DNA from: an uncultured Rickettsiales bacterium
GTDB lineage: Bacteria > Pseudomonadota > Alphaproteobacteria > Rickettsiales > Deianiraeaceae
DNA length: 64,000 bases
Assembly (NCBI GenBank): GCA_946413485.1
Contig: CAMKKS010000001.1
Location: 4,749 to 68,748 of the forward strand
Reading direction: 5' to 3'
Position numbers and translations under genes: made by a program. Shown piece by piece: positions 5,981-53,676 of this stretch; position 1 is the stretch's first letter; each line of letters opens with the position of its first letter. The notes beneath the pieces were generated by a model. The model made no database searches, was not told the origin of the DNA, and worked only from the letters and a program-made list of their open reading frames with translations.

Positions 5981-6011
5981 ATTTTTTAAATATTTATAAT
6001 CTTTCTCGAAA

Positions 6012-6029: not shown

Positions 6030-6051
6030 AAAGGAGAACGTAATATGAAAC

Positions 6052-6130: not shown

Positions 6131-6134
6131 GAAA

Positions 6135-6151
6135 GAGGTCCAAAGGACCTC
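6135..6151 (-). terminator. GAGGTCC-TTT-GGACCTC hairpin upstream of tRNA-Lys
   Basis: 7-bp stem flanked by T-runs on the minus strand; variant of the 5107/6012 hairpin. Confidence 0.5.
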
Positions 6152-6218
6152 AAAAAAGATAAAATATCTATTAAGTTAATTCTAATTAATACTGTTTTTT
6201 AAGAGAACAATAAAACTC

Positions 6219-6924: not shown

Positions 6925-6995
6925 AGCCCCTTGACGGACTCGAACCGTCTTCTCCGGCTTGAACGCCGGTATCATAACCCATATACCAAAGGAAC
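6925..6995 (-). tRNA. non-canonical tRNA-like gene, anticodon region UUCAA (possible UCA)
   Basis: GTTCCTT TG GTAT ATGGGTTATG ATAC(C)GGC GTTCAA GCCGG AGAA GACGG TTCGAGT CCGTC AAGGGGC T; good acceptor (2 G-U) and T arm; anticodon stem CCGGC/GCCGG encloses only 6 nt; no CCA; 4 nt from tRNA-Glu. Confidence 0.45.
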
Positions 6996-6999
6996 ATAG

Positions 7000-7075
7000 T
7001 GGCGTTCCCAACGAGATTCGAACTCGTGTTACCGCCGTGAAAGGGCGATGTCCTAAACCACTAGACGATGGGAAC
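7000..7075 (-). tRNA. tRNA-Glu (anticodon UUC)
   Basis: GTTCCCA TC GTCTAGTGGTTTAGGAC A TCGCC CTTTCAC GGCGG TAAC ACGAG TTCGAAT CTCGT TGGGAAC G CCA; 76 nt. Confidence 0.9.
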
Positions 7076-7633: not shown

Positions 7634-8296
7634 TTATTTAAAATTTACAGGCTTCTTTGTTTTTGAACCTGTGAACATTCCTTTAGTGGATTTTGTCTTA
7701 AGATCAGGCGACTTAACCCATTTATCAAGATCTTGTTTAAAGTTTGCTGCATCCATAAACATTTCAGCCATATTCCAAGCGCCTGAAACATCCCAGCCTG
7801 AAATATCGGAATTAAATTTAACCGCTAGATTAAACATATTTGAGAAGCCTCTAGCTTTCTTTGTCACATTCCACTTTGATAAATCACCGCTAAAAACAGC
7901 ATTATTATAAAACATATAATCAAACAGCTGTACATTTGAAACGTTCCATTTTGAAATATCGCCGTTGAATTTTGACTCAGCAAACATCCACGACATATCT
8001 GTCACATTTTTAGTATTCCACTTTGAGATATCACCGTTGAATTTTGAAAGATGGAACATTCCTCTCATGCTTGTAACATTTGAAACATCCCACTTTGAGA
8101 TATCACCGTTGAAGTCTTTAAATTCTTGAAACAAATATGACATATCTTTAACATTTGAAACATCAATAAAGTTTAAGTCACAATTGTTTCCTTCCTTTTC
8201 GATTGTATCTCTTATAATGATTTCCAATTTAAAACGATTTTTTGGTTTTACAGTTTCAGCTTCATTTAATGAGCTTAAAAATTCTTTAAATAACAT
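7634..8296 (-). CDS. DUF285 / BspA-type leucine-rich repeat protein with CTS-like N-terminus
   Basis: Six roughly 24-aa repeats FNGDISKW(D/N)VSNVTxMxxMF; N-terminus MLFKEFLSSLNE/AET. Confidence 0.75.
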   Translation of the reverse strand: MLFKEFLSSLNEAETVKPKNRFKLEIIIRDTIEKEGNNCDLNFIDVSNVKDMSYLFQEFKDFNGDISKWDVSNVTSMRGMFHLSKFNGDISKWNTKNVTDMSWMFAESKFNGDISKWNVSNVQLFDYMFYNNAVFSGDLSKWNVTKKARGFSNMFNLAVKFNSDISGWDVSGAWNMAEMFMDAANFKQDLDKWVKSPDLKTKSTKGMFTGSKTKKPVNFK

Positions 8297-9438: not shown

Positions 9439-9514
9439 ACGTAATGACCTTTTCATAAAAGTGTATTACGTTGTTTTTATAACGTAATGAACAATCACAA
9501 AAAGCTCATTACGT
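9439..9514. repeat. two ACGTAAT hairpins preceded by TATATAAGGAAATTAAAAAAA box
   Basis: 9439-9471 and 9482-9514. Confidence 0.6.
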
Positions 9515-11449: not shown

Positions 11450-11720
11450 ACGTAATGAGCTTTTGAGAAAAGTCTATTACGTTGAAATTCTATATTTTAA
11501 AATTTTTTATTTTATTATATAATATACAGATATAAAAAATTTTTTGTTCTTTAAAAAATACGTTATGAGTTTTTATGAAAAGTCTATTACGTTATTTTTA
11601 AACTGATCATTTTTCGATCAATAAAAAATACGTTATGAGCTTTTATAAAAAGTCTATTACGTTATTTTTGAATGCTCTTAAAAAAATACGTAATGAGTTT
11701 TCGAGAAAAGTTCATTACGT
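11450..11720. repeat. four ACGTAAT hairpins between spike gene and terminase
   Basis: 11450-11482, 11560-11592, 11630-11662, 11688-11720; TATCTGTATATTATATAATAAAA element at about 11515-11545 (inverted copy at about 57125-57150). Confidence 0.65.
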
Positions 11721-24962: not shown

Positions 24963-25202
24963 ACGTAATGAACTTTTATGAAAAGTCTATTACGTTATAA
25001 TTTTTTAAAGAGAGTTCTAGAACTCGTTCAAAACCAGAACTCTCGAATTCAGTTCCAGAACTAGAAAAACTAGAACCTTCAAAATGAAAACTAGAACTCT
25101 ATTAAAAGTTTTTATTTAAAATATTTTTAAATATCATTATATAAGGAAATTGAAAAAATAAAAAAAAATACGTAATAAGCTTTTACGAAAAGTCCATTAC
25201 GT
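24963..25202. repeat. complete composite non-coding module
   Basis: Hairpin 24963-24995; five GTTCTAG/CTAGAAC boxes 25003-25093; TATATAAGGAAATTGAAAAAATAAAAAAAAA; hairpin 25170-25202. Confidence 0.65.
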
Positions 25203-27428: not shown

Positions 27429-27896
27429 TTAACCAGCTGTGATATAATCTGAAGGTTTGCTCTTTGCGATGTAATTATTAACATTTTCGAGAGTTTGAGC
27501 AAAAGCTGAAAGACAATTTGCTACTTTAATAAAGTGATTGCCGGTTGCTTCACCATTACAGTTAAAACCGAGCTCAAAATAATCTTTCTTTGTTTTTCCT
27601 ACTTCGTAAATCTCGTTTCTGTCCATGATTGTTACAAAGTAAGGTCTTGTTGAGCCTTTATAATTAAAATCAAGGTCAACCCATAAATGATTATTTAAAA
27701 TATAAACATTTAACTTTTTAATTGTAGCAAAACCGTTTAAACCGTCTAAAAGAATTTTCAAAAGACTTTTATAACCTTTAGAATCTTCCATCTCTTTAAG
27801 ATCAACTTTTGTTTCATAATCTTTTGATAAATCTACTTCGTTGATCTGTTCTTCAGTTTTTTCTTCAGGTTTAAAATAATATTCTTTAAAATTCAT
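27429..27896 (-). CDS. CTS-leader protein (internal-protein candidate)
   Basis: 155 aa; MNFKEYYFKPEEKTEEQINE/VDL. Confidence 0.6.
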   Translation of the reverse strand: MNFKEYYFKPEEKTEEQINEVDLSKDYETKVDLKEMEDSKGYKSLLKILLDGLNGFATIKKLNVYILNNHLWVDLDFNYKGSTRPYFVTIMDRNEIYEVGKTKKDYFELGFNCNGEATGNHFIKVANCLSAFAQTLENVNNYIAKSKPSDYITAG

Positions 27897-27907
27897 TTTA
27901 AAAATCC

Positions 27908-28405
27908 TTAAATATATTTTTCAAAATCTTTTACAGAAGCAATGTTAAATTTATCTGAAGGATTTTTAACGATTGTTAAACCCATATTTTTCTTTGGATC
28001 GAATACTTTCTTGAGCTGTCTAAGAGCTTCTTCAAGGCATTCTTCAGCGTTTACCTTGTCCATTACGTGACCTTTAGCTGAAGTATCAATTTTGTTGATA
28101 TAATCAATAGCTTCTTTAAGGGTTAAATGAACATTTGCGTTGTTATTTTCTCTATCCCAAGTAGTAACACTGAATGAAACGGCAGCTGAATGGTCCTTTG
28201 AATTATAATCAATTCTGATTTTTGGAGCTACGTGCTCATAATAGGAATCTTCTTCCTCGTAGTGGACAACCAGTGTCTGAGGGGTTAACATTGTACCATA
28301 CTTGTTACAAAATCTTGAACGGGTCAAGGTCTTTTTAAGCAATTCAAGAACTGGTTCTGAAGCTTCTTTAATAATTTGTTCGTTTAAAAATTCTTTAAAA
28401 CTCAT
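27908..28405 (-). CDS. CTS-leader protein (internal-protein candidate)
   Basis: Start moved to MSFKEFLNE/QIIKE/A (AAGGAT SD); the track start 28459 would overlap the upstream gene. Confidence 0.6.
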   Translation of the reverse strand: MSFKEFLNEQIIKEASEPVLELLKKTLTRSRFCNKYGTMLTPQTLVVHYEEEDSYYEHVAPKIRIDYNSKDHSAAVSFSVTTWDRENNNANVHLTLKEAIDYINKIDTSAKGHVMDKVNAEECLEEALRQLKKVFDPKKNMGLTIVKNPSDKFNIASVKDFEKYI

Positions 28406-28415
28406 TTTAAAATCC

Positions 28416-28751
28416 TTACATATCGAAAGCGATATATGCTTTAACACCAAATTTAGCAAACGGATAACCGTGGGCTAAAATATTGTTTAATTCCATTTCC
28501 CTTGTTATCCACTCAGAAAATTCAGGAATCCAAATTTTTCTTACAAAGCCTTCGAAAAAGCTTGCTGCCGGCGCTTTACCACCGTTTTCTTTATAAGACA
28601 GTTTCTTTTTATTTTTTTCAATAAATGCTTTTGATTTAGGTAAATCGTTGTTATCAACAGTTACCGCGTAAATTTCCCAGAAAAACTGCTCAAAATCAAC
28701 TTTTACTTTTTCATTTAATGGGCATTCATTTAAATACTCTTTAAAATTCAT
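28416..28751 (-). CDS. CTS-leader protein (internal-protein candidate)
   Basis: 111 aa; MNFKEYLNE/CPLNE/K. Confidence 0.6.
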   Translation of the reverse strand: MNFKEYLNECPLNEKVKVDFEQFFWEIYAVTVDNNDLPKSKAFIEKNKKKLSYKENGGKAPAASFFEGFVRKIWIPEFSEWITREMELNNILAHGYPFAKFGVKAYIAFDM

Positions 28752-28762
28752 TTTAATATCCT

Positions 28763-29095
28763 TTAAAGTTTATAATATAAATCTTTTAACCAGGAATCAA
28801 CATATTTTATATTCATAGAATTTTTAAATTTTTCTAATTTTCCTAAAGATTTTTTAACATCTTTAGAACTTTCAAATTCATTTAAAAATTCTTTACAAAG
28901 TAAACATATTGAAACTGCTTTTAAAAGGTTCTCAGAAACATTTAAAAGAGGATAATCATTTTCGGAAATATCTTTAATAGAATTAAATTTTTTAGATTGT
29001 TTCTTAACTTCTGAATTATAAAAATCATAATCAGATTTAATCTTTGAAATTAAATTTTCTTCATTTTCTATTATAAAGATATCTTTAAAATTCAT
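28763..29095 (-). CDS. CTS-leader protein (internal-protein candidate)
   Basis: 110 aa; MNFKDIFIIE/NEE. Confidence 0.6.
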   Translation of the reverse strand: MNFKDIFIIENEENLISKIKSDYDFYNSEVKKQSKKFNSIKDISENDYPLLNVSENLLKAVSICLLCKEFLNEFESSKDVKKSLGKLEKFKNSMNIKYVDSWLKDLYYKL

Positions 29096-29104
29096 TATAA
29101 ATCC

Positions 29105-29410
29105 TTACTTAAAAATAATTTTCTTTAAATCTTCTTCATGTTTTGTTGTAAATTCTAAAAACTTTTCGAGAACCTTTAAATTGTTAACGAGGTCATAAGA
29201 AGGATAGCCATATTCTTCAGAAAACGAATAAAAAACAGGATTTTGAAAATTTATTGTAATACCAAACATAGCAGCAGAGTTGCCAGCTTCAAGACTTAAA
29301 ATATTTTTATTTAAATTTAAAACTTTTACTTTAAATTTATTTTCTTTAAAATAATTTTCAATCTCTTTTATAGCTTCGTTTCCTTCAGTTAAATAATCTT
29401 TAAAATTCAT
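29105..29410 (-). CDS. CTS-leader protein (internal-protein candidate)
   Basis: 101 aa; MNFKDYLTE/GNE. Confidence 0.6.
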   Translation of the reverse strand: MNFKDYLTEGNEAIKEIENYFKENKFKVKVLNLNKNILSLEAGNSAAMFGITINFQNPVFYSFSEEYGYPSYDLVNNLKVLEKFLEFTTKHEEDLKKIIFK

Positions 29411-29691
29411 TATAAATCCTCGTAGTATGCTATAAATTCGTTTTCCTCGTCATAAACCTTTAAATATTCTCGGTTTTTCTCAATTTTAATGTTTATGACC
29501 AATTCTTGACCTTTGTTAAAATATTTATGAAAAGGGTTTAAAACAGTGACATATAAACCGATGTCGTCTTCTCCAATTTTTCCTTGAAAAGCCGGCGAAC
29601 CGTCTAATCTTTTAAATCTTAAGATTTTTCCTACATACTTTTCTTTATACTCTCGGTTAACACTTTCTAAAATATAGTCTTTAAAATTCAT
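29410..29691 (-). CDS. CTS-leader protein (internal-protein candidate)
   Basis: 93 aa; MNFKDYILE/SVN. Confidence 0.6.
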   Translation of the reverse strand: MNFKDYILESVNREYKEKYVGKILRFKRLDGSPAFQGKIGEDDIGLYVTVLNPFHKYFNKGQELVINIKIEKNREYLKVYDEENEFIAYYEDL

Positions 29692-35000: not shown

Positions 35001-35033
35001 ACGTAATGAGCTTTTATGAAAAGTCTATTACGT
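35001..35033. repeat. ACGTAAT hairpin preceded by TATATAAGGAAATTGAATTTTTTT box
   Basis: ACGTAATGAGCTTTTATGAAAAGTCTATTACGT. Confidence 0.6.
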
Positions 35034-36014: not shown

Positions 36015-37115
36015 TTAAAAATCATAACTTAAGAACTTATAATCACCCATTAAATGAGTAGGGAAAACAGTACCATCTTTAGAGCGGATATTTAATTTTA
36101 TTTCAAGAATTCCATCAAGATTTAAAAGAACATCAACTCGCTTCGCTGCACCTTCTTTAGGATAAAGAACTTGAGCTTTTGAGATGTTTGAAGATAATTT
36201 TTTAGCTTTTTCTGGAGTCATTTCAAGAACATGAACTTTGCTTCCCATATCATGTAAAAGAACGTAATTATATCCGATTAAATTATATAAAAAGTTTTTA
36301 AAATCTTTATTATTTAAATTAACATCTACATATTGTTTTTCTTTTACTTTTGAAGATCCCTGATCAAGCCCTTTATATTCAGTGAAAATCTTACAAAATC
36401 TTACTGGTTCAATTCCTAAAAAGTTCAGAAGCTGTAAAGCACCATTAGAAAGTTCTTTAGGATTTCCTGTTTCAGCACATTTTGTCATTTCGGATATTTT
36501 AAGAATTTTCTTTAAACCTAAATTTACGAATGTTACTGAAGGCCCAGCTTTGATAGATAAATACAATTCTCTTTCTCTTCCGCCTGCATCAGTAAAAACT
36601 AAAGTACAGTCAGTGAGAATAGAGCCATCTCCTTCAATTGTTAAAATACCGTTTTGAACATTTGTTTTTCTTGATTTATTTAAAGAACCTTCCTCTCTTA
36701 CGGCAACTAAAGTGCATTCAGGCCATTTTTCTTCGGCAATATCTAAAACTTTTCTCATATAATCTCTTGAGATAAAACCGGTTTTTTGATATTCTTTCCA
36801 TTCAGCTCCGATTTGAGATTCAACTTTAAATCCGCGGTTTTGATAGTTTGAATAAACACCTTTAAAAATCTTATTCCATTTAAGACCGTTAGAGAAAACA
36901 AAATCTGAAATTGCTTCAGGATTGTTATTGTAAATATCCTCAAGCTTGTCGGCATCTTCCTGGGGCAGAATATAACGGTTTTTATCTAAAACTTCTTTTT
37001 CACCAAATCCAATTTCCTTTCCATCTCGGATATCTTTAATAACAAGCTTTCCGTATTTCAAAAAGCGGTTATTCTGCATGTAAGCTTCCGCTAATTCTTT
37101 AAAATTCTTAAACAT
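36015..37115 (-). CDS. nuclease-like protein (possible PD-(D/E)XK), paralogue of 55907-57004, CTS-like N-terminus
   Basis: 366 aa; MFKNFKELAE/A; ILTDCTLVF..RELYLSIKAG; C-terminal blocks LQLLNFLGIEPVRFCKIF, IGYNYVLLHDMGSKVHVLEMT, KLNIRSKDGTVFP shared with 55907-57004. Confidence 0.4.
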   Translation of the reverse strand: MFKNFKELAEAYMQNNRFLKYGKLVIKDIRDGKEIGFGEKEVLDKNRYILPQEDADKLEDIYNNNPEAISDFVFSNGLKWNKIFKGVYSNYQNRGFKVESQIGAEWKEYQKTGFISRDYMRKVLDIAEEKWPECTLVAVREEGSLNKSRKTNVQNGILTIEGDGSILTDCTLVFTDAGGRERELYLSIKAGPSVTFVNLGLKKILKISEMTKCAETGNPKELSNGALQLLNFLGIEPVRFCKIFTEYKGLDQGSSKVKEKQYVDVNLNNKDFKNFLYNLIGYNYVLLHDMGSKVHVLEMTPEKAKKLSSNISKAQVLYPKEGAAKRVDVLLNLDGILEIKLNIRSKDGTVFPTHLMGDYKFLSYDF

Positions 37116-37196: not shown

Positions 37197-37796
37197 TTAT
37201 GGTTGATATTCTGGTTCTTCTTCTGGTTCTTGAACTGGAGTTTCTGGTTCTGAATTTTCCTGTTCTGGTTCTTCAGAATTACATTTACATTTGCAGTCAC
37301 ATTTTTCTAAAAGATCTGTGTCTTCAGTTGAAATTTCAATCTGTGAAGGATCTTCCTCTTTTGGAGTAACCACAATTGTCAGCAAACCGTTCACATATTT
37401 TGAAGATATGTCACAATCCATATAAGTATCAGGAAGTCTGAAAATTCTCTCTGCATCTTTAAAGGATATATTCTGTTGAACCCATGTAATATTCGGATTG
37501 CAGCATGAGCATTTACAGTTTCGGCTGTCTAAACTCTTATGCGAATCTTCGATGGTTGCGACAACTTTTATCACATTTCCAACATAGGTTAATTTGATAT
37601 TTTCCGGCTTAAATCCAGCTAAAGCAATGGTAAATACAAGCTTTTTACCGGCATAACCGATGTTTGTTAACGGATATCTCTGAACTTCAGATTTTTCATT
37701 AAAAGGATCCTTGAGAAGTTTCTCTGCTTCAGAAAGGATAGTGTGAAGTGGGAATTTAGTTAAATTGTTGTCATTATAGTTTCTTACGTAGTACAT
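37197..37796 (-). CDS. small heat-shock protein (Hsp20 / alpha-crystallin domain) with Cys-cluster inserts
   Basis: ..YPLTNIGYAGKKLVFTIALAGFKPENIKLTYVGNVIKVVATIE..FRLPDTY..SSKYVNGLLTIVVTPKE; CKCSCCNP insert and CDCKCKC plus an acidic/Pro tail. Confidence 0.75.
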   Translation of the reverse strand: MYYVRNYNDNNLTKFPLHTILSEAEKLLKDPFNEKSEVQRYPLTNIGYAGKKLVFTIALAGFKPENIKLTYVGNVIKVVATIEDSHKSLDSRNCKCSCCNPNITWVQQNISFKDAERIFRLPDTYMDCDISSKYVNGLLTIVVTPKEEDPSQIEISTEDTDLLEKCDCKCKCNSEEPEQENSEPETPVQEPEEEPEYQP

Positions 37797-38319: not shown

Positions 38320-38553
38320 ATGGAATTTTTAGAATATTTAGAGCTTAAAACATATAATAAGCCAATGTGTTTAAATACCTATAAAGGCATTAAAAAGAAA
38401 AAATATCCTAAATGGCAAGGCTGGAAAGTTTTAAAAAGATTAAAGGCAGAGAAAAAACCGTTTGAATCAGATTATTTAGATCTTCTGGTTTACAATTTTT
38501 ATCTCTGCCAGTTTATTAAAGAAAACTTTCTGAGTACAGACTCAGAAAGTTGA
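38320..38553 (+). CDS. hypothetical small protein
   Basis: 77-aa ORF starting 2 nt after the previous stop. Confidence 0.45.
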   Translation: MEFLEYLELKTYNKPMCLNTYKGIKKKKYPKWQGWKVLKRLKAEKKPFESDYLDLLVYNFYLCQFIKENFLSTDSES

Positions 38554-38556
38554 TTT

Positions 38557-39594
38557 TTAAATATCCTGCTTAACAATCGGAGCGGTTGCTACCGGTTCTT
38601 CGTCATTCTGAAGTCTTGTAATGAATGAAAAAGCTGTTTTTGAAGCTTTTTCAGCTGGAGATTTTTCTTCAGCTTCAGGATCAATTGACGGAACAAAATC
38701 TTGAATCTGTTCTCTGTGTTCAGGTTCCTGAATATCACCCTCATAAATATCATCATTTGTTATAACAACATTTTTAGGTTTAATTCTTCTTGTAAAATAC
38801 TTTGAAAAAATTCTATCTTCAACTGGAGCAATATCACGAGTTTCGGTTCCTAAAGAACTACCAGGTGGAACTGGGGCAGGAGTGTCAGCTGAGGTTGAAC
38901 CGTCAGGAATATTTTCAGCACCGGTCACATATTCAGTATCAGCTAATCCGTTAACCATTGCGTCAGTAGCAATTACGGAATCATCTTCACAGCATTCTTT
39001 GTCTTCAAAATCTTCAATATCAGTGTATTCACAATCAACACCGGCAAATTCAACATCTTCGATCTCGTCGTCAACTTCATTTTCATTTACCATGTAGAAC
39101 TGCTTAAGATTTTCATAATAAGGCCAAATCTCTTTTGGAGTGTTTGCTCTAAAGTAAGCTTCGTCGTTGATGTTAGCGATAACTTTTGAAGCGGATAAAT
39201 CTTCTTCAGTTCTCGTTGTTTCAATTACTTCAATTCCTAAATCATACTTTTGAACCATCTTTGTGTAACCAAAAGATCTGTCTGAACCGCAGAAAAGAGC
39301 AACTGGTTTAAAATTACAAAGTGGTTTGATTGCTACTAAATCAGCATTTTTAAATTCGATAACTTCAACTTTATCTCTAAATCTCTGATTTAAAAGAGCG
39401 TTTAACATCATTCTTCTAAGTTCTTTTGATTGAAGAGTATTCTTGCCGGTTACAAGAACTACAGAAGCATGACCAAATTTATTGATAGCGTGCTGAATCA
39501 GCTTAACATGAGAATTCGTCAAAATTCTGAATTTACCGATAACTAAGCCAGACTCGTTAGCTTCGTTTATAATTCTTTCTGTTAAAAATTTCAT
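38557..39594 (-). CDS. HIGH-motif nucleotidyltransferase (NMN/cytidylyl-transferase-like) with acidic C-terminal tail and CTS-like N-terminus
   Basis: MKFLTERIINE/AN; VIGKFRILTNSHVKLIQHA (G-x-F-x-x-x-T-x-x-H) and LSASKV resemble the (H/T)xGH and ISSTxxR motifs; C-terminal half is low-complexity acidic. Confidence 0.5.
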   Translation of the reverse strand: MKFLTERIINEANESGLVIGKFRILTNSHVKLIQHAINKFGHASVVLVTGKNTLQSKELRRMMLNALLNQRFRDKVEVIEFKNADLVAIKPLCNFKPVALFCGSDRSFGYTKMVQKYDLGIEVIETTRTEEDLSASKVIANINDEAYFRANTPKEIWPYYENLKQFYMVNENEVDDEIEDVEFAGVDCEYTDIEDFEDKECCEDDSVIATDAMVNGLADTEYVTGAENIPDGSTSADTPAPVPPGSSLGTETRDIAPVEDRIFSKYFTRRIKPKNVVITNDDIYEGDIQEPEHREQIQDFVPSIDPEAEEKSPAEKASKTAFSFITRLQNDEEPVATAPIVKQDI

Positions 39595-39614
39595 TTTTAA
39601 TCCTTTTTTAAATG

Positions 39615-39622
39615 TATTTATA
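39615..39622 (-). promoter_or_regulatory. T4-type late promoter box TATAAATA
   Basis: 21 nt upstream of ATG 39594. Confidence 0.45.
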
Positions 39623-39625
39623 ATT

Positions 39626-41023
39626 TTAAAAATCTTTTAAAATATCTTCAGGTATTTTTTCTGAAAATTCTTTTGTTTCTATCCCTGGGATTTTATCTGT
39701 TACTTTTTTAAAATCATTATAATTATCTTTAGAACATAAAACACAATTTATATTCAAATCTAAAGATATTTTATTTAACATTGTTATTAAAGAAGCTGAA
39801 GTAAATTTAAAAATCTTTATATCTTTAAATATATCTTTGATATTTTTTTCTTTTAAAGAAAAATCATCACCTTTAGGATTTAAAACACCCAAAACAACAA
39901 AATCATAATTTTTTAAAGCTTCTTTAATAATACTTTTATGATAATCTGTAATATTTAAAAATCTTCCTGGAATTAAACAACCGTTATTTCCTTCTAAGCT
40001 TTTAATTATTAACTTTTTAGCAACTTCCTGAATATCATCACAGATTTGAACAACATTCTTTTTAGCATTTTTAAAATCAGGATTGAATTTTTTAATTGCT
40101 TTTGAGAGCTCTTTTAATCTTTCATTTAAAGAACCTGAATTTATGTTTTTAATGATTTTTAAAGCTGCATTTTTAACATTCTTTTTATATTCAATTTCGT
40201 CGTCAAAATCTAAAGTAAATTTTTCTTTGATTTTAGCTCGAGCTTCCTGATCAAGCTGGTAAACCTGTTGAACTTTTAAGATTTTATCATTATATTTAAT
40301 TACAACGCCCTCTTCTTTTCCACCATACTTTGACTCAACGTTTAAAAATAATTCCTGTAATTGTTTCCACAAAACTTCAGGATCAGTCCAATCAAGGTTC
40401 ATTTTTAAATATTCTTTTTTAATATTATTATTTAAAATTCCAGCTTCAAAATCCTTTTTAGTTCCTAAAATTCCTTTGAATAATTTATTAGGAATATCGA
40501 TTTTTAAAATTTCCGCATATTTTTCACGGTCTTTAAATTCCATTTCACCAGGTGAAGTTTTTAATAATCCGAATTTTTCAGTATAAGATGTTTTTGAATA
40601 ACCAACTAAAACCATCTTATGCGGATTTTTATAATTAGAGCTTAAAGTCGGTTTACGCTGTAAAAACTCAATAGCAAATTCATAATTTAACGGTAAATCA
40701 CATTTCCCTAGATTTTTAAAGTGATCAATAACAATCTTATATTGTGAAATACCGATAGAAGATTTTTTAATAGCTAAAGTTGACTGAGACGAAAATTCGT
40801 CTTCAAAAAAGACAGAACCTTTATAAGCAATAATCCAATCATTAAAATCACCGTTATTTGCTTTATGAATAACGGTCAGTTTGGTTCCATCTGTTTTGTG
40901 TTCAATCTCAACTTCTGATTTTAAAAATTCTTCTATTTTAGATTTAGAATTTAAAAATTTTTCAGCAGATAAAATTGAAATATCAAGCTGTTTTGCTTCT
41001 TTTAAATATTTTATAAAATCCAT
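39626..41023 (-). CDS. ATP-dependent ligase (RNA/DNA ligase nucleotidyltransferase) fused to a second HIGH-motif nucleotidyltransferase domain
   Basis: Motif I HKTDGTKL (KxDG), motif IV EGVVIK, motif V KILKVQ; C-terminal CLIPGRFLNITDYHKSIIKEAL; N-terminus MDFIKYLKE/A. Confidence 0.6.
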   Translation of the reverse strand: MDFIKYLKEAKQLDISILSAEKFLNSKSKIEEFLKSEVEIEHKTDGTKLTVIHKANNGDFNDWIIAYKGSVFFEDEFSSQSTLAIKKSSIGISQYKIVIDHFKNLGKCDLPLNYEFAIEFLQRKPTLSSNYKNPHKMVLVGYSKTSYTEKFGLLKTSPGEMEFKDREKYAEILKIDIPNKLFKGILGTKKDFEAGILNNNIKKEYLKMNLDWTDPEVLWKQLQELFLNVESKYGGKEEGVVIKYNDKILKVQQVYQLDQEARAKIKEKFTLDFDDEIEYKKNVKNAALKIIKNINSGSLNERLKELSKAIKKFNPDFKNAKKNVVQICDDIQEVAKKLIIKSLEGNNGCLIPGRFLNITDYHKSIIKEALKNYDFVVLGVLNPKGDDFSLKEKNIKDIFKDIKIFKFTSASLITMLNKISLDLNINCVLCSKDNYNDFKKVTDKIPGIETKEFSEKIPEDILKDF

Positions 41024-42256
41024 TTAATAATATTCCTGAACATAATTTTTTAAATTAACAAAATTTAAAAAACTTTCTTTCATAGAAGCTTTAGGAGTTC
41101 TACCGAAATTTTTATAATATTTTTCAGTGTATTCTTTAGATAAATCTTTAAGATTAAAAAATTCAATAAATTTTTTATATCCAGCGTATTTTACATCATA
41201 ATCTAAAACTTTATCACCAGGTTCAATTTCCTGTGATTTAGGCGATGATTTCCACAAATAATCTAAATATCTTTTATGAACAATATCGATCGTTTTTTGA
41301 TCAGCATATTTTTTGATCAATTCTAGCAATCCTAAAAATGACCACAATTTTCTGTCATCACCTGATTTTTCAGCTTTTAAAAGATCTTCAGGTTTTAAAA
41401 CAATTTTAAAGATTTCCTTTAAAGACTGTTCAAATTTTGAATTTGAAGTAGGAATTTCCTTATAAACATACTTTCCTTCAAACTGAACAACGGAACCGTC
41501 AGGATTTAAAATCGGTTCATAAGCTGTTCTTAATCCGCGGATAACTGAGAATTTTAAAAGATGTGGAAAATCCGGCTGTTCTTTAGGGAATCTTAACTTA
41601 TTGTAAGTTGATGCTTGAGTAGCGATAATGATATCGTCTCTCACTGAAACAGAACTAACTAACGCCTGTAAAAGTAATTTGTGGTGAACAGCTTTAATTC
41701 CTTCTTTACAATCTTCAAACGAACTTGAATGAGAGAATTTTGACCATTCCGTCGGAGTGTCTTCCTCAAATTTTAAAAATTCAAAATCAATCTGAACAGC
41801 AACTCTTCCAACATTCTCAAATTTAATAATAAAAATAGAATTTATCTGATCACCGATTGAGTTAACTGAAGGTTTGTTTGAGCCCATGTAAGTACAGTTC
41901 TTTGAGATTTCAAGCTCTTCATATCTGCTTAAAAAATTCCATAATGTTTCTTTATCTTCTTCAGGAACCTGAATATCTAAATCGCCGGCAAATTCTTTGT
42001 ACTGTAAAATATCTTCGTCTGAAATAGCAGGGTTCATAATAAAAGACGAAGATCCGTTAAACATAAAACCGTTTAAAATTAAATCTTCTTTAATCCAAAG
42101 TGAATGACCTGAGTATTTTTTAAATTTTATATTAATATCTTTTAATAATTGACGAATAACCTTCAAAAAGGCCGGTCTTCCTATCTGCTTCAAAGGAATT
42201 TTCTGTGCTTTAGTCTGAATTCCTGTTTTTGTTAGCGCTATAATATTTCCGCCCAT
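41024..42256 (-). CDS. Pol-beta-superfamily nucleotidyltransferase-like protein
   Basis: FNGSSSF..(20)..AGDLDIQV..(about 60)..VQIDFEF gives a GS / DxD / third-acidic pattern; start placed at MGGNIIA (AAGGAT SD); track start 42277 overlaps the upstream gene. Confidence 0.4.
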   Translation of the reverse strand: MGGNIIALTKTGIQTKAQKIPLKQIGRPAFLKVIRQLLKDINIKFKKYSGHSLWIKEDLILNGFMFNGSSSFIMNPAISDEDILQYKEFAGDLDIQVPEEDKETLWNFLSRYEELEISKNCTYMGSNKPSVNSIGDQINSIFIIKFENVGRVAVQIDFEFLKFEEDTPTEWSKFSHSSSFEDCKEGIKAVHHKLLLQALVSSVSVRDDIIIATQASTYNKLRFPKEQPDFPHLLKFSVIRGLRTAYEPILNPDGSVVQFEGKYVYKEIPTSNSKFEQSLKEIFKIVLKPEDLLKAEKSGDDRKLWSFLGLLELIKKYADQKTIDIVHKRYLDYLWKSSPKSQEIEPGDKVLDYDVKYAGYKKFIEFFNLKDLSKEYTEKYYKNFGRTPKASMKESFLNFVNLKNYVQEYY

Positions 42257-42257
42257 T

Positions 42258-42863
42258 TTAAAATCCTTTTTTAACAATATTTATACTATTCAAATATTTT
42301 TCAGTGTACTTTTTAAAATCTTTATCTGAAATTTCAACAGGATAAAAATCATTTTCGGGGTTGTCAACGCAAACGTTTATTCTTGGAACTTCATTATCCG
42401 TAGGGGATTTTTCATGTGTATGGCCGTGGAAAATCATCAAACAATTTGACTCATCAAAAATCTGTCTTAATCCTTTCATTTTAGGATCCATTATCTGATT
42501 TTCATTTAACGGATAATGGCAAAGAAAATAATCCCCTAAAATGATATAATCTTCAACAGCTAAAAATCCGCACTCTAAATAAAAAGAGTCAGGAAATTTA
42601 TCGTGATTTCCTCGGATTAAAATCTTTTTCCCTTTAAGATTTTTAAGAATTGTTTTAAACATATCTTTATTTGTTTTATTTAAAAAAGCAATATCCCCTA
42701 GGTGAAAAACAATATCGTCGTCAGATACTTTTTCGTTATATCTTTCAAAGATTGTTTTAATACAGTCAATAACGCCTTCTGAAGAAAAATCAAACGGACG
42801 GTTACAGTATTTAATAATATTTTGATGGCCAAAATGCTGGTCGGAAGTTAAAAATATTTTCAT
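42258..42863 (-). CDS. calcineurin-like metallophosphoesterase
   Basis: SDQHFGH, LGDIAF, RGNHDK, CHYP, FHGHTH: the full MPP motif set. Confidence 0.8.
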   Translation of the reverse strand: MKIFLTSDQHFGHQNIIKYCNRPFDFSSEGVIDCIKTIFERYNEKVSDDDIVFHLGDIAFLNKTNKDMFKTILKNLKGKKILIRGNHDKFPDSFYLECGFLAVEDYIILGDYFLCHYPLNENQIMDPKMKGLRQIFDESNCLMIFHGHTHEKSPTDNEVPRINVCVDNPENDFYPVEISDKDFKKYTEKYLNSINIVKKGF

Positions 42864-42929
42864 TTAAAATCCTTTTTTAATTTTAATAATTATATATCAA
42901 AATTTTAAAAATGTGAATTTTTAAAAAAT

Positions 42930-43450
42930 ACGTAATGAACTTTTAGTAAAAGTCTATTACGTTATAAAAAAATTTTTTCAATTTCCTTATATAAAGATAT
43001 TTAAAAATATTTTAAATAAAAAGCTTTTAATAAAGTTCTAGTTTTTCTAGTTCTAGAACTTTTGAGAGAGTTCTGGTTTTGATTTGAAAGTTCTAGTTTT
43101 GAGTAAAAATTCGATATTAAAAGTATTTTTATATATTCTTTATATAAAGAATATCAAAAAATTTTTTATAACGTTATTCAAAATCACGAAAAGCTCATTA
43201 CGTTGTTTTTATAACGTAATAGACTTTTACGAAAAGGTCAATACGTTGTATTAAAAAAATTTCAATTTCCTATATAATAATATCTTTAAAATAAAAACCT
43301 TTAAATTAAGTTCTAGAACTCGAATTTAACTCGAACTCTCAAATTGAAAACTAGAACTTATTCAAAAATGTTTTAAAAGATATCTTTATATAAGGAAATT
43401 GAAAAAATAAAATTATTACGTAATGACCTTTTGCGAAAAGTCTAATACGT
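42930..43450. repeat. double composite non-coding module (archetype)
   Basis: Hairpins 42930-42962, 43171-43203, 43214-43246, 43418-43450; box arrays 43034-43101 and 43308-43357; CAATTTCC(T)TATATAA boxes; TTCTTTATATAAAGAA palindrome at about 43137-43152. Confidence 0.7.
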
Positions 43451-43517: not shown

Positions 43518-45020
43518 TTAGTACTTTCTTGATGGTTTAGCAAGTACACTTGGTGCCTGCCTTGCGAGAACAGTATTCGCAAAGCTTACGCCAAATGAAC
43601 GAGCGTAGGTCTTTGCACGGTCATTGCTCTTAGGATCAGAAACACCTGGAGTTGTAGCCAAAGCGTAACGAGTTTTAGCAATGATAACAGGCTGACCGGT
43701 AACGTAATCTGTAACCTTTGTGAAGGACAGAGGAACATACGGACAGAAGAAGCCCATAGCATCACGGCTGTTAGCGCCCTTGTAAAGAACGGTGCAGAAG
43801 TCGTCCTTAGCATACTGATCGATAACAACCTTGTAGCGGTTATCGAATACACCAGCAACACCACCGGAAACAGGAGCGATAATATCGGAATTAGTAGGAG
43901 CCAGCTGGAATGAACCAACCTGTTCTAACATGGTAGCAACCATTGGAGAAACCAGAAGGATATTACCTTGTCCACGCTTTGTATCTAAACCGATAATTGC
44001 GGATTCTTTAGCAATACGAATTGCTTGAGCACGATATCTTTCAATTTCCCAACGACCATCAGGAACCTGAACATTAGTCTGAGCACCGAATACAGTATCA
44101 GGTAACCAGGTAGAATTATCCTTAACAAAATCAACGATTTCACGGTCAATTTCAGCCTGAATTTCGTACTGCATCAAGCTCATCAGTTCTTCATCAGCGG
44201 TTAAACCGTGCTGAGCTTTTAAGTCCTGATAAAGTTCAACAGTGTACTTACCTTTCAGAGCACGAGAATCAGCGGCAATTGGTTTTCTTGAAATACTGAA
44301 ACCAACTTCACGCATTTCGTCGCCAAGGTGTTCAGCTTCAACTGTCTTATAAGGACCAGTGAAGTTCTTCAGAATGTGACCGAAAGAAGATTCGTTAGTG
44401 TACACTGCGGTTACTGTCAGATTAGTAACAGCTGTGCCGATATCAAATTTATCGCCAACATTCAGATTTTGATTTACATGATTTGTAGTATTGTCTACAT
44501 CAACAGTAGCAAGGATCTTGTCGTCTTCGATGTACAGAACATAACCTTTATCAGCACCGGCAGAATTCTTGATCTTTGAAGTAGAAGTTTGAACGGTACC
44601 AGCCTGAACAGCAGCCTTAATTAAATCTGCATCAGTCAAAGAAACCTGATAGATAACACCAGCTGGTTTTGGACGATCGTCAACTTTCTTAAGACCATCA
44701 CCAAGATACTGATTAACGAGAGCATAGATAAAGCCGGTAGGCATGCTCATTGGCTGAACACCAAGTAATTCGTTAGCAATCAGATTTGGATAGATACGTC
44801 TAATCATAGGGATTATGATTGGGGTGAATTGAGCAACGTCACCGGTTAAAGTACCTTCACTCAAAGTTTTCTGAATATCAATCTGAGTGTTTTCAATAAG
44901 TTGAATAATTGTTTCTTTTTGAGAATCTGTCATCGGACCGAATTTTTCAGATTCCAAAACACTTTTTGCAAATTCATTAGAGGTTGCCTTCTGAACTGCT
45001 TCGCTTAATAACATATCCAT
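43518..45020 (-). CDS. major capsid protein (T4 gp23-like)
   Basis: 500 aa; IIPMIRRIYPNLIANELLGVQPMSMPTGFIYAL parallels T4 gp23 MGMVRRAIPNLIAFDICGVQPMNSPTGQVFAL; several L-x-E sites in the first 60 residues; visibly higher G+C than neighbours. Confidence 0.9.
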   Translation of the reverse strand: MDMLLSEAVQKATSNEFAKSVLESEKFGPMTDSQKETIIQLIENTQIDIQKTLSEGTLTGDVAQFTPIIIPMIRRIYPNLIANELLGVQPMSMPTGFIYALVNQYLGDGLKKVDDRPKPAGVIYQVSLTDADLIKAAVQAGTVQTSTSKIKNSAGADKGYVLYIEDDKILATVDVDNTTNHVNQNLNVGDKFDIGTAVTNLTVTAVYTNESSFGHILKNFTGPYKTVEAEHLGDEMREVGFSISRKPIAADSRALKGKYTVELYQDLKAQHGLTADEELMSLMQYEIQAEIDREIVDFVKDNSTWLPDTVFGAQTNVQVPDGRWEIERYRAQAIRIAKESAIIGLDTKRGQGNILLVSPMVATMLEQVGSFQLAPTNSDIIAPVSGGVAGVFDNRYKVVIDQYAKDDFCTVLYKGANSRDAMGFFCPYVPLSFTKVTDYVTGQPVIIAKTRYALATTPGVSDPKSNDRAKTYARSFGVSFANTVLARQAPSVLAKPSRKY

Positions 45021-45057: not shown

Positions 45058-45906
45058 TTAATATAATCTACTTAAACGTTTTTCTAAATCGCTTTGTTCT
45101 CTTGACTCGTTTAAAGTCTCAGGACGTGAAACTTTTACGTAATCATTCTTAACAGGGGATTTAGTTGGAACTCTTACATATTCTTCTGAAACTGCTTCTT
45201 CTTCAGGCTCTTCTGGTTCTTCGTGGCATTTTTCAGCAAGCTTTGCTTCGTCAATAATTGCTTGTTTCAGATTTTCTAATTTATTTATGTATCTTGAAGA
45301 TTTTTCAAAAACAACATTGTTAGCGCAACGTTCGAATTTAACAGCAGCTTCGCCTTCTAAACCTTCCTTAAGTTCTGCGATAATACCCATCTTAATGAGC
45401 TTCTGATTTTCCTTAAGAAGATTTGATTTTTCTTCTTCAAGCTTCTGCATAGCGGCTAAAGTCTTTAACATCTTATTATTTTCTGAAATTGTCTTTTCAG
45501 GATTTTGATTTTCAACAGACTCAGCAATCTTCTGAGCAGAAACACCAGCCATGGTACAGGCATTAGCTAAAGAGTCAAGAATGAAGTTATTTTTATAATC
45601 AGCTTCAGTTACTGCAAAAATATCTTCGTGTTCGGAAATAAAACTGTTAACAGTTTTATCAATATATTTTTCAATAATTGAATTCAGGCTTTCCAATCTA
45701 CCGTCAACGAATTTGATTGCGTCTTCTTTGATTTCATTTTTATATGATTCGCAAAGGTCATTTAAACGCAAAGTTTCTTCTTCAATTTTCTGGTCGGCTA
45801 AAATTGAAGCTTTTGATTCGATTAAGCTTTCAATTTTGCTTTCCAACTCTTCTTGAAGATCGTCGGTAAATGCTTCACCTAAAACTTCCTTAAATTGTTC
45901 AAGCAT
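45058..45906 (-). CDS. prohead scaffolding core protein (gp22-like by position and composition)
   Basis: Acidic coiled-coil protein between protease and MCP; start placed at ATG 45906 (GGAG SD). Track start 45921 is a TTG inside that SD. Confidence 0.6.
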   Translation of the reverse strand: MLEQFKEVLGEAFTDDLQEELESKIESLIESKASILADQKIEEETLRLNDLCESYKNEIKEDAIKFVDGRLESLNSIIEKYIDKTVNSFISEHEDIFAVTEADYKNNFILDSLANACTMAGVSAQKIAESVENQNPEKTISENNKMLKTLAAMQKLEEEKSNLLKENQKLIKMGIIAELKEGLEGEAAVKFERCANNVVFEKSSRYINKLENLKQAIIDEAKLAEKCHEEPEEPEEEAVSEEYVRVPTKSPVKNDYVKVSRPETLNESREQSDLEKRLSRLY

Positions 45907-45932
45907 TTTAAAATTCTCCAAATGTTTTTAAT

Positions 45933-45978: not shown

Positions 45979-46953
45979 TTAAATTTTTTGAAGGAAATTT
46001 TCAAATAATTCTCTAATTGCGTCTTGTTTTTGTGCTAATGTGATTGATTCTTTAATCTCTTCAGGTTCTTGAACAGGTTCTGGTTCTTGAACTTGTTCTT
46101 GAACAGGTTCTGGTTCTTCAGGTTGAACTTCTGGAACTGGTTCTGGTTTTAAAGACTCTTTGATTTCGTTTAAAGAATTTTTTAAATCTTCTTTTAAAGA
46201 ATCTTTAAAAGATTTTAAAGAATTTTCGATTTGTTCTTGAATATTTACATCGGAAATTTCGGGTTCAGTTTTAATTTCCGCTTCAACATTATTTACATTT
46301 CCTTCGTCAATATTTTCGACAGAATTTTCAGGTTCTTTTAATTTTTCGATAATATTTCCGAATTTATCAATTTCATAAGTTTTATCTTGAACAATTCCCT
46401 CACAAAGTCTGTGAGCTTCACACATACCGTTCATTGTTGCGTTATAATCTGAAGGATTAGGAACAACATCATAAGTGATTAACTTAAAGCTTTCAACAAT
46501 ACCGTTTTTAACAGAACCTACACCTCTTGAAGATACTGAAATTTTAACATCATTATCAACTAAAGATTTTAACTGATTAGCTTGAGGATTATCTAAAAGA
46601 ACAGCTTCACCCATAACGTATTGGCCTTCAATCCATAATTTTGTTATTTTTGAAACTGCTTTCATAGGGTCGACTTCAGTTCTTGCCGGGTGTTCGTATT
46701 CCATCAAAGTGTTGATAGAACCTGACTTAATTTCATTCTGATATTCGGCGACATTACGTTCCCACAAAGGTCTTGGATAAGTTCTACCATTACGGTTTTT
46801 CTCACCTATAGTAGAGAAAACACCTCTGATTTTATATTTTTTCTCAGATTTACCAGTTGCTTCGTTGATTTCCTCTTCTTTAACAACTGACAAACCTTGA
46901 GTATCTGAATCAAATATTAAAGAGCTCATGTACATCTCCTTAAATTCCGTCAA
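45979..46953 (-). CDS. prohead core protease (T4 gp21-like)
   Basis: RNGRTYPRPLWERNV, MEYEHPARTEVDPMKAV, VSSRGVGSV parallel T4 gp21 NKRLYPKRILEKAV, ELNHPPRANVDPMQAA, VSSRGLGSL; C-terminal acidic/Pro repeat EPEPVQE. Confidence 0.85.
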   Translation of the reverse strand: MTEFKEMYMSSLIFDSDTQGLSVVKEEEINEATGKSEKKYKIRGVFSTIGEKNRNGRTYPRPLWERNVAEYQNEIKSGSINTLMEYEHPARTEVDPMKAVSKITKLWIEGQYVMGEAVLLDNPQANQLKSLVDNDVKISVSSRGVGSVKNGIVESFKLITYDVVPNPSDYNATMNGMCEAHRLCEGIVQDKTYEIDKFGNIIEKLKEPENSVENIDEGNVNNVEAEIKTEPEISDVNIQEQIENSLKSFKDSLKEDLKNSLNEIKESLKPEPVPEVQPEEPEPVQEQVQEPEPVQEPEEIKESITLAQKQDAIRELFENFLQKI

Positions 46954-53280: not shown

Positions 53281-53676
53281 ATGAATTTTAAAGATTTTTT
53301 CAACTTAAACGAGAGTTATGACAATAAGATAATGAAGAACTCAGAGGCTTATAAAAATATTTTAAAAATTTTTAGCAAACACAAAATTAAAGTTAAAAAT
53401 TTAATGACGATTGCTCTTAAGAGCCAAAATTATATTTCCGTCGTTCCTGATTTGGATTTAGACAATTTTTCATTTGAATGTAGAATAAATAAAATCTCTT
53501 CTTTAAAGAAAGAAGATTTTTTCAATCTTTCTGTTGATTTTGGAAAGGTTTTTTCAGTTGAGTCAGCTTTGATTTTATCTGAAAAATTAAAATCTGTAGC
53601 TCTTTGCCTTAAAGAGCTTAACGATTATTTAAAAAATGTTGATATTTTAGAATTTTACGATCCCGACGATCTATAA
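53281..53676 (+). CDS. hypothetical protein with CTS-like N-terminus
   Basis: 131 aa; MNFKDFFNLNE/SYD. Confidence 0.55.
   Translation: MNFKDFFNLNESYDNKIMKNSEAYKNILKIFSKHKIKVKNLMTIALKSQNYISVVPDLDLDNFSFECRINKISSLKKEDFFNLSVDFGKVFSVESALILSEKLKSVALCLKELNDYLKNVDILEFYDPDDL

Follow-up and report, generated by a model that had tools for sequence, protein, structure and literature searches.

The stretch analyzed here (64,000 nucleotides of contig CAMKKS010000001.1, GenBank assembly GCA_946413485.1, positions 4,749 to 68,748 of the forward strand; referred to below as the window) has a G+C content of ~29% and represents the region of a T4-superfamily myovirus that encodes morphogenesis functions. Behind the major capsid gene, on the minus strand, it carries a block of four enzyme genes encoding a phosphoesterase, a Pol-beta-fold nucleotidyltransferase, a ligase fused to a HIGH-motif nucleotidyltransferase domain, and a stand-alone HIGH protein. 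Our tentative reading is that the block encodes a kit for the repair of RNA ends, delivered by the virion and centered on an Rnl2-like RNA ligase, an explanation that we favor while regarding it as far from secure. What the data show are domain identities, gene linkage, gene fusions, leader statistics, promoter motifs, and mass spectrometry matches in the virions of a relative. The original prediction, made from the letters of the stretch alone, had described four open reading frames (ORFs) with these domains, and all four lie on the minus strand at the following positions, with some corrections to the domains.

42258-42863, minus strand: gene 1, calcineurin-type metallophosphoesterase, 201 amino acids (aa), no leader (Pfam Metallophos; phrog_547)
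41024-42256, minus strand: gene 2, Pol-beta-fold nucleotidyltransferase, 410 aa from ATG (phrog_19290, E = 3e-75; AlphaFold2 [AF2] model)
39626-41023, minus strand: gene 3, ligase-HIGH fusion, 465 aa (ligase motifs and HIGH motif)
40997-41023, minus strand: gene 3 residues 1-9 (MDFIKYLKE), propeptide resembling a T4 capsid-targeting sequence (CTS) and ending in L-x-E (strict leader regular expression)
39989-40996, minus strand: gene 3 residues 10-345, predicted Rnl2-like ATP-dependent RNA ligase domain (Foldseek match to 2HVR; invariant motifs)
39626-39988, minus strand: gene 3 residues 346-465 and stop, degenerate HIGH (PPAT/cytidylyltransferase-like) domain, truncated at the C terminus (family HIGH profile positions 1-113 only)
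38557-39594, minus strand: gene 4, stand-alone HIGH protein, 345 aa (HIGH motifs)
39085-39594, minus strand: gene 4 residues 1-170, intact HIGH nucleotidyltransferase domain (family HIGH profile, E = 2e-50, positions 2-190)
38557-39084, minus strand: gene 4 residues 171-345 and stop, acidic Cys-containing tail (net charge -32; about 180 aa)

The ligase encoded by gene 3, whose start codon adjoins the gene 2 stop codon, is very probably of the RNA ligase type, judging from its modeled fold. In the AF2 model (pLDDT 87.6; residues 1-14 below 50 and disordered), a covalent-nucleotidyltransferase domain is followed by a four-helix C-terminal domain (helices 259-342) and then by a PPAT-like Rossmann domain, and no OB fold is present. 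The top Foldseek match was T4 Rnl2 (2HVR; E = 1e-5), followed by 2HVQ and 1S68, with E values extending to 6e-4 and no DNA ligase among the top 50 matches. Five of 40 homologues also matched Pfam RNA_ligase (PF09414; best E = 1.4e-5), gene 3 itself being without a match, and a Protein Data Bank (PDB) search with the single gene 3 sequence returned noise. Placement of the ligase among replicative DNA ligases, which the original prediction had considered as an outcome that would overturn it, is thus not what we found; we reject the replicative identity on grounds of fold and domain architecture. Across 40 sequences, K43, D45, and G46 of motif I (K43-T-D45-G46) and E238 and G239 of motif IV (EGVVIK) were invariant; both motifs had been read from the sequence at the outset. 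The third motif then reported, KxK, did not survive inspection: motif V reads K250-V-Q252, with both of the numbered residues invariant in the same 40 sequences, and comparison by eye with AIKCK of T4 Rnl2 indicates that the second lysine has become glutamine. Ligase activity is predicted from the fold and the motifs, and the enzyme would join a 3'-OH to a 5'-phosphate.

Gene 2 appears from its model to found an unannotated family of Pol-beta-fold nucleotidyltransferases. We placed its start at the ATG at 42256 (410 aa) in place of the mechanically listed TTG at 42277, because the motif TATAAATA overlaps that TTG, relatives begin M-GGN, and public gene calls give 410 aa. In a 40-sequence alignment of the family, G75, S76, D99, D101, and D164 were invariant, and the AF2 model (pLDDT 90) adopts a Pol-beta fold, bearing out the GS / DxD / D pattern first noted in this protein. 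The best Foldseek match was the palm-thumb region of Pol lambda/beta (probability 1.0; E = 7e-4; TM 0.28/0.43; ~280 aligned columns); fold neighbors in BFVD were nearly all unnamed, some being called "DNA polymerase-like protein." Pfam and NCBIfam contained no family for gene 2, no Pfam match was obtained for any of 40 members (gene 2 and 39 relatives), and PDB searches with the single sequence and with the gene 2 profile gave noise. An exhaustive profile search nevertheless gave a family of 697 clusters at 50% identity, which corresponds to phrog_19290, labeled "unknown function." We propose that the protein acts as an adder of missing 3' nucleotides or as a gap filler.

Gene 1 was described originally as a calcineurin-type phosphoesterase with all five motifs, and this description is sound. 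The protein matched Pfam Metallophos over model positions 1-190 of 191 (E = 5e-11) and phrog_547 (E = 1e-38), and D8-x-H10, G56-D57, G84-N-H-D87, H116, and G147-H-x-H150 are all readable. Its nearest solved structure is Aquifex aq_1665 (1XM7; E = 4e-13). In the proposed scheme this enzyme would heal 3' ends by taking off 2',3'-cyclic phosphates or 3'-phosphates.

To place the block among its relatives, 40 loci encoding the ligase-HIGH fusion were collected and their ORFs were clustered. In 32 of the 40 loci the ligase has a Pol-beta gene no more than 6 kb away, mostly directly upstream, and a phosphoesterase lies within 6 kb upstream in 15 of 40; the phage family of gene 1 is also common beyond ligase loci (619 phage records). 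A third partner, a P-loop kinase of ~175 aa (Pfam AAA_33, 1.5e-8; Walker A GGSASGKN), was found in at least 12 of the 40 loci, adjoining the ligase in at least 11 and fused to the ligase N terminus in one (L038). Fusions connect the members in several further ways: Pol-beta–ligase–HIGH (P0241 and P0266), kinase–Pol-beta (P0280), and Pol-beta–kinase (P0297), in addition to kinase–ligase–HIGH. All four genes of the block recur together in L048, behind other upstream genes. The block genes very probably form a functional unit, and the association of a kinase, a phosphoesterase, a 3'-nucleotide adder, and a ligase follows the logic of end healing and sealing. RNA or tRNA healing and sealing was one of two readings put forward originally, and it is now better supported by the Rnl2 fold and by the linked kinase of relatives, the part left wanting being a kinase in the window itself. 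That the block has no P-loop kinase had been recognized from the start; we confirmed this across the whole 64 kb, and many relatives have one adjoining or fused. The fusion is essentially restricted to phages: among 185,579 species genomes it occurred on only two metagenome-assembled contigs. As a separate observation, the Walker A motif of the linked kinases ends in GKN, which is unusual relative to GK[ST] (L004, 7382-7918, and 10 other loci).

The same enzymes could instead act on DNA, as a packaged kit for repair of single-strand breaks and gaps in the incoming phage genome, mending nicks, ribonucleotide-containing junctions, or nuclease damage in a manner that mirrors eukaryotic PNKP/Pol beta/Lig3 or bacterial LigD. 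The Pol lambda/Pol beta palm-thumb matches of gene 2 over ~280 columns and its "DNA polymerase-like" BFVD neighbors are in keeping with this idea, as are the facts that head-internal proteins travel with DNA and that a gp2-type DNA end protector is encoded nearby. Moreover, Rnl2-type ligases seal nicks in duplexes, requiring only a 3' ribonucleotide. However, the ligase lacks an OB domain and finds no DNA ligase among its best fold matches, relatives encode a separate canonical OB-fold DNA ligase (CP220 gp033), and the likeness of gene 2 to family X is weak (TM 0.28/0.43), with none of the HhH DNA-binding domains of that family seen. On balance we consider a DNA substrate unlikely.

The most informative feature of the block is the CTS-like leader. 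T4 internal proteins carry N-terminal capsid-targeting sequences of 10 to 19 residues that are cut by gp21 after L/I-x-E (PMC9026906, PMC3012670). The gene 3 N terminus (MDFIKYLKE, then A) fits a strict version of this pattern, which was found at 11 of 78 ORF N termini in the window compared to 0 of 228 internal Met positions. Among ligase family representatives with a locatable core motif, 114 of 117 have an N-terminal extension that passes the leader test, and at 115 scored sites the P3 residue was leucine at 59, isoleucine at 51, and alanine at the other 5. The Pol-beta family shows a related regularity: 154 representatives begin M-GGN, 70 more have a leader of 4 to 42 residues that ends right before GGN in [L/I/M]-x-E (L in 49, I in 20, M in 1), and only 6 have neither. 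It follows that the mature Pol-beta protein always begins Gly-Gly-Asn, as gene 2 would after Met removal; to judge from these N termini, GGN is produced either by Met removal or by gp21-type cleavage, and its constancy hints that a free N-terminal glycine matters for function. In Campylobacter phages CP220 and IBB_35 the Pol-beta protein has a leader (MKLSELMFILE, then GGN) and the ligase has none, the reverse of the window, so that the distribution of leaders between the two proteins looks complementary. Linked small kinases bear similar leaders. CTS-like leaders had been noted originally on two members of the block: that of gene 3 stands, by strict pattern and family-wide, whereas that of gene 4 is looser and was given less weight because in the fused proteins the homologous segment, with which it aligns, is an internal linker helix. 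The leaders are presumably cut by the gp21-family protease of the window, which lies in the head module three genes upstream of the block, the minus-strand order being protease, scaffold, capsid, and then the four genes.

45979-46953, minus strand: prohead maturation protease of the T4 gp21/Peptidase_S77 family (phrog_207, 5e-51; Pfam Peptidase_S77 on the identical gene in L047)
45058-45921, minus strand: scaffold gene, in the head module
43518-45020, minus strand: major capsid gene, in the head module

Leaders of this kind occur elsewhere in the window. Just downstream of the tail sheath gene lie six tandem small ORFs (93 to 165 aa; 27429-29691, minus strand) beginning MNFK[DE]Y/F...E or MSFKEFLNE, five of which fit the strict pattern, with 27429-27896 a near match; from their sequences this looks like an array of internal proteins. 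The same leader also begins many otherwise unrelated proteins, at 246-530, 3152-3709, 7634-8296 (a DUF285-repeat protein; Pfam, 3e-50), 53281-53676, 59124-59786, and 55907-57055 (alternative start), with near matches at 36015-37115, 57221-58039, and 3826-4200. The breadth of this distribution suggests that an unusually large set of cargo may be packaged in the head.

Promoter motifs are in line with late expression of most of the block. The T4-type late-promoter motif TATAAATA occurs 30 times in the window (11.9 expected), and 20 of these copies lie 13 to 51 nt upstream of a same-strand ORF start, including those of the portal, sheath, scaffold, and tube genes. Two copies belong to the block, each followed by AAAGGA and then ATG, and genes 2-3 and gene 4 are therefore best regarded as putative late genes within the head-morphogenesis module. 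Gene 1 has a candidate promoter of another type, just downstream of one copy (42930-42962) of a dispersed palindrome described below.

42278-42285, minus strand: late-promoter motif TATAAATA (distance to the ATG of gene 2, 22 nt)
39615-39622, minus strand: late-promoter motif TATAAATA (distance to the ATG of gene 4, 21 nt)
42889-42917, minus strand: putative sigma-70-like promoter TTCACA-17-TATAAT upstream of gene 1 (11 of 12 consensus positions)
38524-38551, both strands: bidirectional intrinsic-terminator-like hairpin at the block end (12-bp stem, T-run on both strands), shared with convergent plus-strand ORFs

Homologues of two of the block proteins are listed in a published virion proteome. 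The supplementary tables of the virion proteome of Campylobacter phage vB_CcoM-IBB_35 list, as "hypothetical" in the authors' labels, the products of genes 1-56 (44,446 Da; 17.0% coverage), 2-25 (39,734 Da; 2.9%), and 2-24 (10,994 Da; 23.7%) (PMC3322345). From coordinates and BLASTP, gene 1-56 is the gene 2 homologue (39% identity), and genes 2-25 and 2-24 together make up a gene 3 homologue that is split between frames: 2-25 is the ligase part (41% identical), and 2-24 is the HIGH part (99% identical to CP220 gp026 residues 407-503). The published proteome already contained these proteins with their nature unrecognized. We consider it probable that the enzymes of the block are packaged in the virion. 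Given late genes within the head module and a propeptide on the ligase, it is likely that these proteins enter the prohead, are trimmed there, and leave it together with the DNA.

Two alternatives bear on this step. According to the first, the block serves ordinary cytoplasmic RNA repair, and the leaders and virion matches are incidental. T4 Pnkp and Rnl1 act in the cytoplasm from early transcripts, the sigma-70-like promoter of gene 1 could give early read-through over the whole block, genes 1 and 2 bear no leaders here, and the Vibrio and Campylobacter ligase homologues bear none either. Yet 70 Pol-beta and ~110 ligase representatives have the exact L/I-x-E junction ahead of a conserved mature N terminus, a pattern that is difficult to account for unless the proteins are matured by proteolysis, and both the late-promoter motifs at genes 2 and 4 and the homologues in purified IBB_35 virions speak for packaging, which makes a purely cytoplasmic role rather improbable. 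The second accepts packaging and makes the set offensive, with injected enzymes altering host RNA to seize or cripple host translation, for example by tRNA 3'-end addition or by RNA ligation, circularization, or 5'-capping with a nucleotide diphosphate. Packaged T4 Alt, which modifies host RNA polymerase, would be the model. Packaging signals and late expression fit this idea equally, canonical repair offers no obvious place for the HIGH domain, and T4 internal proteins are typically host-directed effectors (PMC3012670); nevertheless, the recurrent kinase and phosphoesterase are end-healing activities and fit broken ends better than intact RNA. We therefore regard an offensive function as quite doubtful.

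The HIGH domain is the member whose role is hardest to place. It was fused to the ligase in all 120 of the ligase family representatives, confirming as genuine and family-wide the ligase-nucleotidyltransferase fusion that had been singled out originally as novel. Its typical motifs in relatives are GKFRVLTKGH, GSDR, and RT-x3-ISASK, and 39 of 40 family members match PF01467 in the fused domain, gene 3 being the sole exception. Here, the expected G353-x-F-x3-T-x2-H362 pattern is kept, as first reported, but the remainder of the domain has decayed: the motif ends in TDYH with the glycine of GH lost, GSDR has become SKDN, and the protein ends before ISASK. Gene 4 has the features that gene 3 has lost, namely GKFRILTNSH (TNSH, with Gly replaced by Ser), CGSDR, and LSASKVI, with RTEEDLSASKVI retained; it scored 18.9 bits against PF01467, under the 21-bit cut-off, and matched the C-terminal part of phrog_27149 (4e-23). 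It is thus the second, stand-alone nucleotidyltransferase copy with an acidic tail that the sequence had suggested, with intact motifs and a tail charge of -32. In the nearest relative gene 4 is 71% identical across the whole protein. The next relative (L006/P0002; 74% identical) likewise has gene 4 together with a fused HIGH copy that is half decayed, so that the fused domain decays where a stand-alone copy exists, in the window and in L006. Between the gene 4 tail and those of 620- to 680-aa ligase-HIGH variants only G-T-x3-[DN]-I-A-P-V is in common. Gene 4 is, from its motifs, presumed to be the active HIGH copy, and its integrity while the fused domain decays indicates that HIGH activity is needed, though not in cis.

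What the domain does is the weakest step of the explanation. It is about equidistant from PPAT, NMNAT, and cytidylyltransferases (profile matches of 7e-7 to PPAT versus 5e-4 to NMNAT), and its RT-x3-[IL]SASK motif may be closer to the cytidylyltransferase signature RTEGISTS. Enzymes of the HIGH class transfer a nucleoside monophosphate (NMP) to a phosphate acceptor, and in chemical terms an RNA end with a 5'-phosphate is such an acceptor, akin to NMN. We propose that the HIGH nucleotidyltransferase would be an obligatory partner of the ligase, working with a phosphate acceptor; that it makes or reverses A(5')pp(5')N (AppRNA) at a 5'-phosphate RNA end is, by analogy with this chemistry, a possibility to which we lend limited credence. 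The other reading put forward originally, regeneration of NAD+ or nucleotide cofactors against NAD-depleting defenses with the HIGH domains as NMN adenylyltransferases, is highly improbable: in its favor are a weak match of gene 4 residues 14-78 only to phrog_3462 ("nicotinamide-nucleotide adenylyltransferase"; E = 1e-4) and matches to NadR/NMNAT models far under their cut-offs, and against it are the closer approach of the HIGH profile to PPAT than to NMNAT, the invariable fusion to an RNA ligase, and the finding of no Nampt, Adps, or Namat-like NAD-pathway partner in the 40 neighborhoods or among the annotated genes of the window.

Taken together, the virion-delivered RNA repair kit would work as follows; the catalysis at each step, the identity of the substrate as RNA, the packaging of the enzymes by this particular phage, and the purpose of the whole are inferred. 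The enzymes would be loaded into the prohead, trimmed by the protease, and then ejected alongside the DNA, so as to be ready in the cell at time zero, where they could repair tRNA or other RNAs that host ribonuclease defenses have cleaved, with no need for prior translation. A 5'-kinase would be a member of the system, as in many relatives; the window encodes none. Packaging would be of advantage because ribonuclease defenses stop translation, of which ready-made enzymes are independent. T4 Pnkp/Rnl1 is the textbook counter to anticodon-nuclease defense and relies on early translation, which such defenses shut down; virion delivery, if true, removes that dependence, and phage "ejected proteins" gain a new functional class. 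A bolder version, which we offer as speculation that may well be wrong, is that a large T4-like clade packages and injects a whole RNA repair machine (ligase-HIGH, Pol-beta 3'-end restorer, and often a kinase) undoing tRNA or rRNA cleavage before translation, in which the HIGH domain performs or reverses 5'-adenylylation and takes over or proofreads ligase steps 1 and 2. Such a transfer of steps 1 and 2 would fit the altered motif V of the ligase, and this split of steps between HIGH domain and ligase would be a new division of labor in nucleic acid ligation. Testable functions can in any case be proposed for phrog_27149 and phrog_19290, both labeled "unknown function," and the ligase, the 3'-end adder, and possibly a 5'-adenylylating enzyme are possible reagents.

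Several observations weigh against the repair kit as we have drawn it. For the ligase, Foldseek TM scores to Rnl2 are low (0.24 to 0.36), the second lysine of motif V is absent, and hhalign of the ligase family against T4 Rnl2 gave a probability of 0.15, that is, no detectable sequence similarity. The closest structures to gene 2 are family X DNA polymerases and not RNA-specific enzymes, RlaP (PF10127) was not matched at E ≤ 1 by gene 2 or 40 relatives, and the catalytic roles of both families are inferred from family chemistry. Evidence for packaging is likewise uneven: neither gene 1 nor gene 2 of this phage bears a leader, the looser gene 4 leader aligns with a linker helix, the Campylobacter and Vibrio ligase homologues have no leader, and in IBB_35 virions the ligase part was covered at only 2.9% in a proteome that also has a QueC homologue, so that contaminants are possible. 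No kinase was found in the 64-kb window by tblastn, Walker A scan, or family hidden Markov model (HMM), and if there is none elsewhere in the ~178-kb genome, breaks with a 5'-OH could not be sealed. Finally, much of the linkage may reflect vertical inheritance in one T4-like clade, although the fusions suggest that this is not the only cause.

The surroundings of the block are those of a T4-type structural region. Terminase, baseplate hub, sheath, tube, neck, portal, and gp2-type end protector genes are annotated in the window, as are a gp21-type prohead protease, scaffold, and gp23-type major capsid protein, and metagenomic contigs of up to ~178 to 184 kb carry identical proteins. By capsid protein, the closest cultured relatives are Vibrio phages Va1/phiKT1024 (~60% identity) and Campylobacter Firehammervirus (CP220; ~43%). 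When the block was compared by Megablast with 50,697 phage records, no match was obtained, and relatives are seen only at the protein level. A strong hairpin lies 3' of the capsid gene, and the 654-nt gap between this gene and gene 1 contains three or four copies of the palindrome together with other repeats. The palindrome itself (33 nt; ACGTAAT-GAnCTTTT-nnn-AAAAGnnC-ATTACGT) occurs in 26 copies at ≤3 mismatches (0 expected), including 9439-9471, 11450-11482, 24963-24995, 35001-35033, 42930-42962, 43214-43246, 43418-43450, and 57183-57215; those placed on the ORF map, part of the 26, are all intergenic, and we assume a resemblance to the promoter-early stem-loop cassettes of T4-type phages.

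Other neighbors may be recorded. A gene for an Hsp20-family small heat shock protein with a Cys-rich acidic C terminus (37197-37796, minus strand) lies within the head module, and one of this family is kept near the block in 7 of 40 loci. Two phrog_8438 paralogues with leader-like N termini are present (36015-37115 and 55907-57055, both minus strand), the first close to the block; phrog_8438 directly follows the ligase in L013 and L014 and shows by eye a PD-(D/E)xK-like D...S-[IL]-K pattern without database support. The proteins that often follow the ligase (clusters c6, c24, c39, and c15/phrog_8438) are PD-(D/E)xK-like by eye and gave no usable Pfam match, so that they have no part in the scheme proposed here. 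Seven tRNA genes (Gln, Trp, Asn, Thr, Lys, and Glu) cluster at 4759-7075 on the minus strand, and in one ARAGORN call (6925-6995) the anticodon loop is abnormal. Anticodon nucleases are well known to attack the tRNAs for Lys, Glu, and Gln.

Healing and sealing is a known kind of system. Four things are new here: the ligase-HIGH fusion is obligatory, a previously unannotated Pol-beta-fold family has a GGN terminus that arises by processing, the small kinase is of a distinct type, and repair enzymes bear signals for capsid targeting; we found no paper that describes them. A full-text literature search found no description of an RNA ligase-cytidylyltransferase fusion or a virion-packaged RNA ligase, a mention of the fusion in Burroughs and Aravind 2016 (NAR 44:8525) being possible, and we found no characterized precedent for an RNA ligase to which a HIGH nucleotidyltransferase is always joined.

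Among known systems, the T4 Rnl2 (gene 24.1/rnlB) family, which includes the kinetoplastid RNA-editing ligases, provides the best fold match and shares the KxDG nucleophile, the EGxxxK motif IV, and an all-helical C-terminal domain in place of an OB fold; the kinetoplastid editing complex also pairs its ligase with a Pol-beta-fold nucleotide adder. T4 rnlB adjoins head genes 21-22-23-24 (L050; phage T4 108636-109640), a position comparable to that of the block, and this parallel suggests that the proximity of Rnl2-type ligases to head genes is ancient. Unlike T4 Rnl2, the block ligase has no detectable sequence similarity to it, an invariant Gln for the second Lys of motif V, a constant C-terminal HIGH fusion, and an N-terminal capsid-targeting-type propeptide. 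T4 Pnkp/Rnl1 and bacterial Pnkp/Hen1 (Pnkp1-Rnl-Hen1) share the logic of kinase, phosphoesterase, and ligase, echoed by the kinase-ligase fusions of relatives, and the phosphoesterase of Clostridium thermocellum Pnkp is calcineurin type, as is gene 1. In contrast to these systems, the kinase here is a small AAA_33-type protein with a GKN Walker A that is not in the window, a Hen1 methyltransferase is lacking, nucleotidyltransferases of two further kinds (Pol-beta fold and HIGH) are present, and late expression with packaging signals takes the place of early cytoplasmic expression.

The characterized HIGH enzymes (PPAT/CoaD, NMNAT, and the glycerol-3-phosphate and choline-phosphate cytidylyltransferases) have in common with the block domain a Rossmann-like fold, GxFxxxTxGH, and [IL]SASK, with PF01467 in 39 of 40 relatives and PPAT structures matched at E = 7e-7; the block domain differs in being about equidistant from all subfamilies and always attached to an RNA ligase. 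Unlike NARP1 and NARP2, it is accompanied by neither Adps and Namat nor Nampt and Nmnat partners in the 40 neighborhoods or among the annotated window genes. For gene 2 the nearest counterpart is RlaP (PF10127), a Pol-beta-fold enzyme that is genomically tied to RNA ligases, as gene 2 is in 32 of 40 loci and by fusions, and that, ahead of ligation, extends damaged RNA at its 3'-OH by one or two NMPs (PMC12776372). We propose, by analogy, that gene 2 may be a functional analogue of RlaP and not a family member, given that the gene 2 family has no PF10127 match, is nearest to family X polymerases, and has a processed Gly-Gly-Asn N terminus. T4 IPI, IPII, IPIII, and Alt, finally, resemble the leader-bearing proteins in their short propeptide, aromatic/hydrophobic spacing, and L/I-x-E site (PMC9026906), in an encoded gp21-family protease, in late promoters, and in genes in or near the head module. 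Unlike those T4 proteins, which are small basic proteins, a restriction inhibitor, and an ADP-ribosyltransferase, the cargo proposed here would be a multienzyme set for nucleic acid repair.

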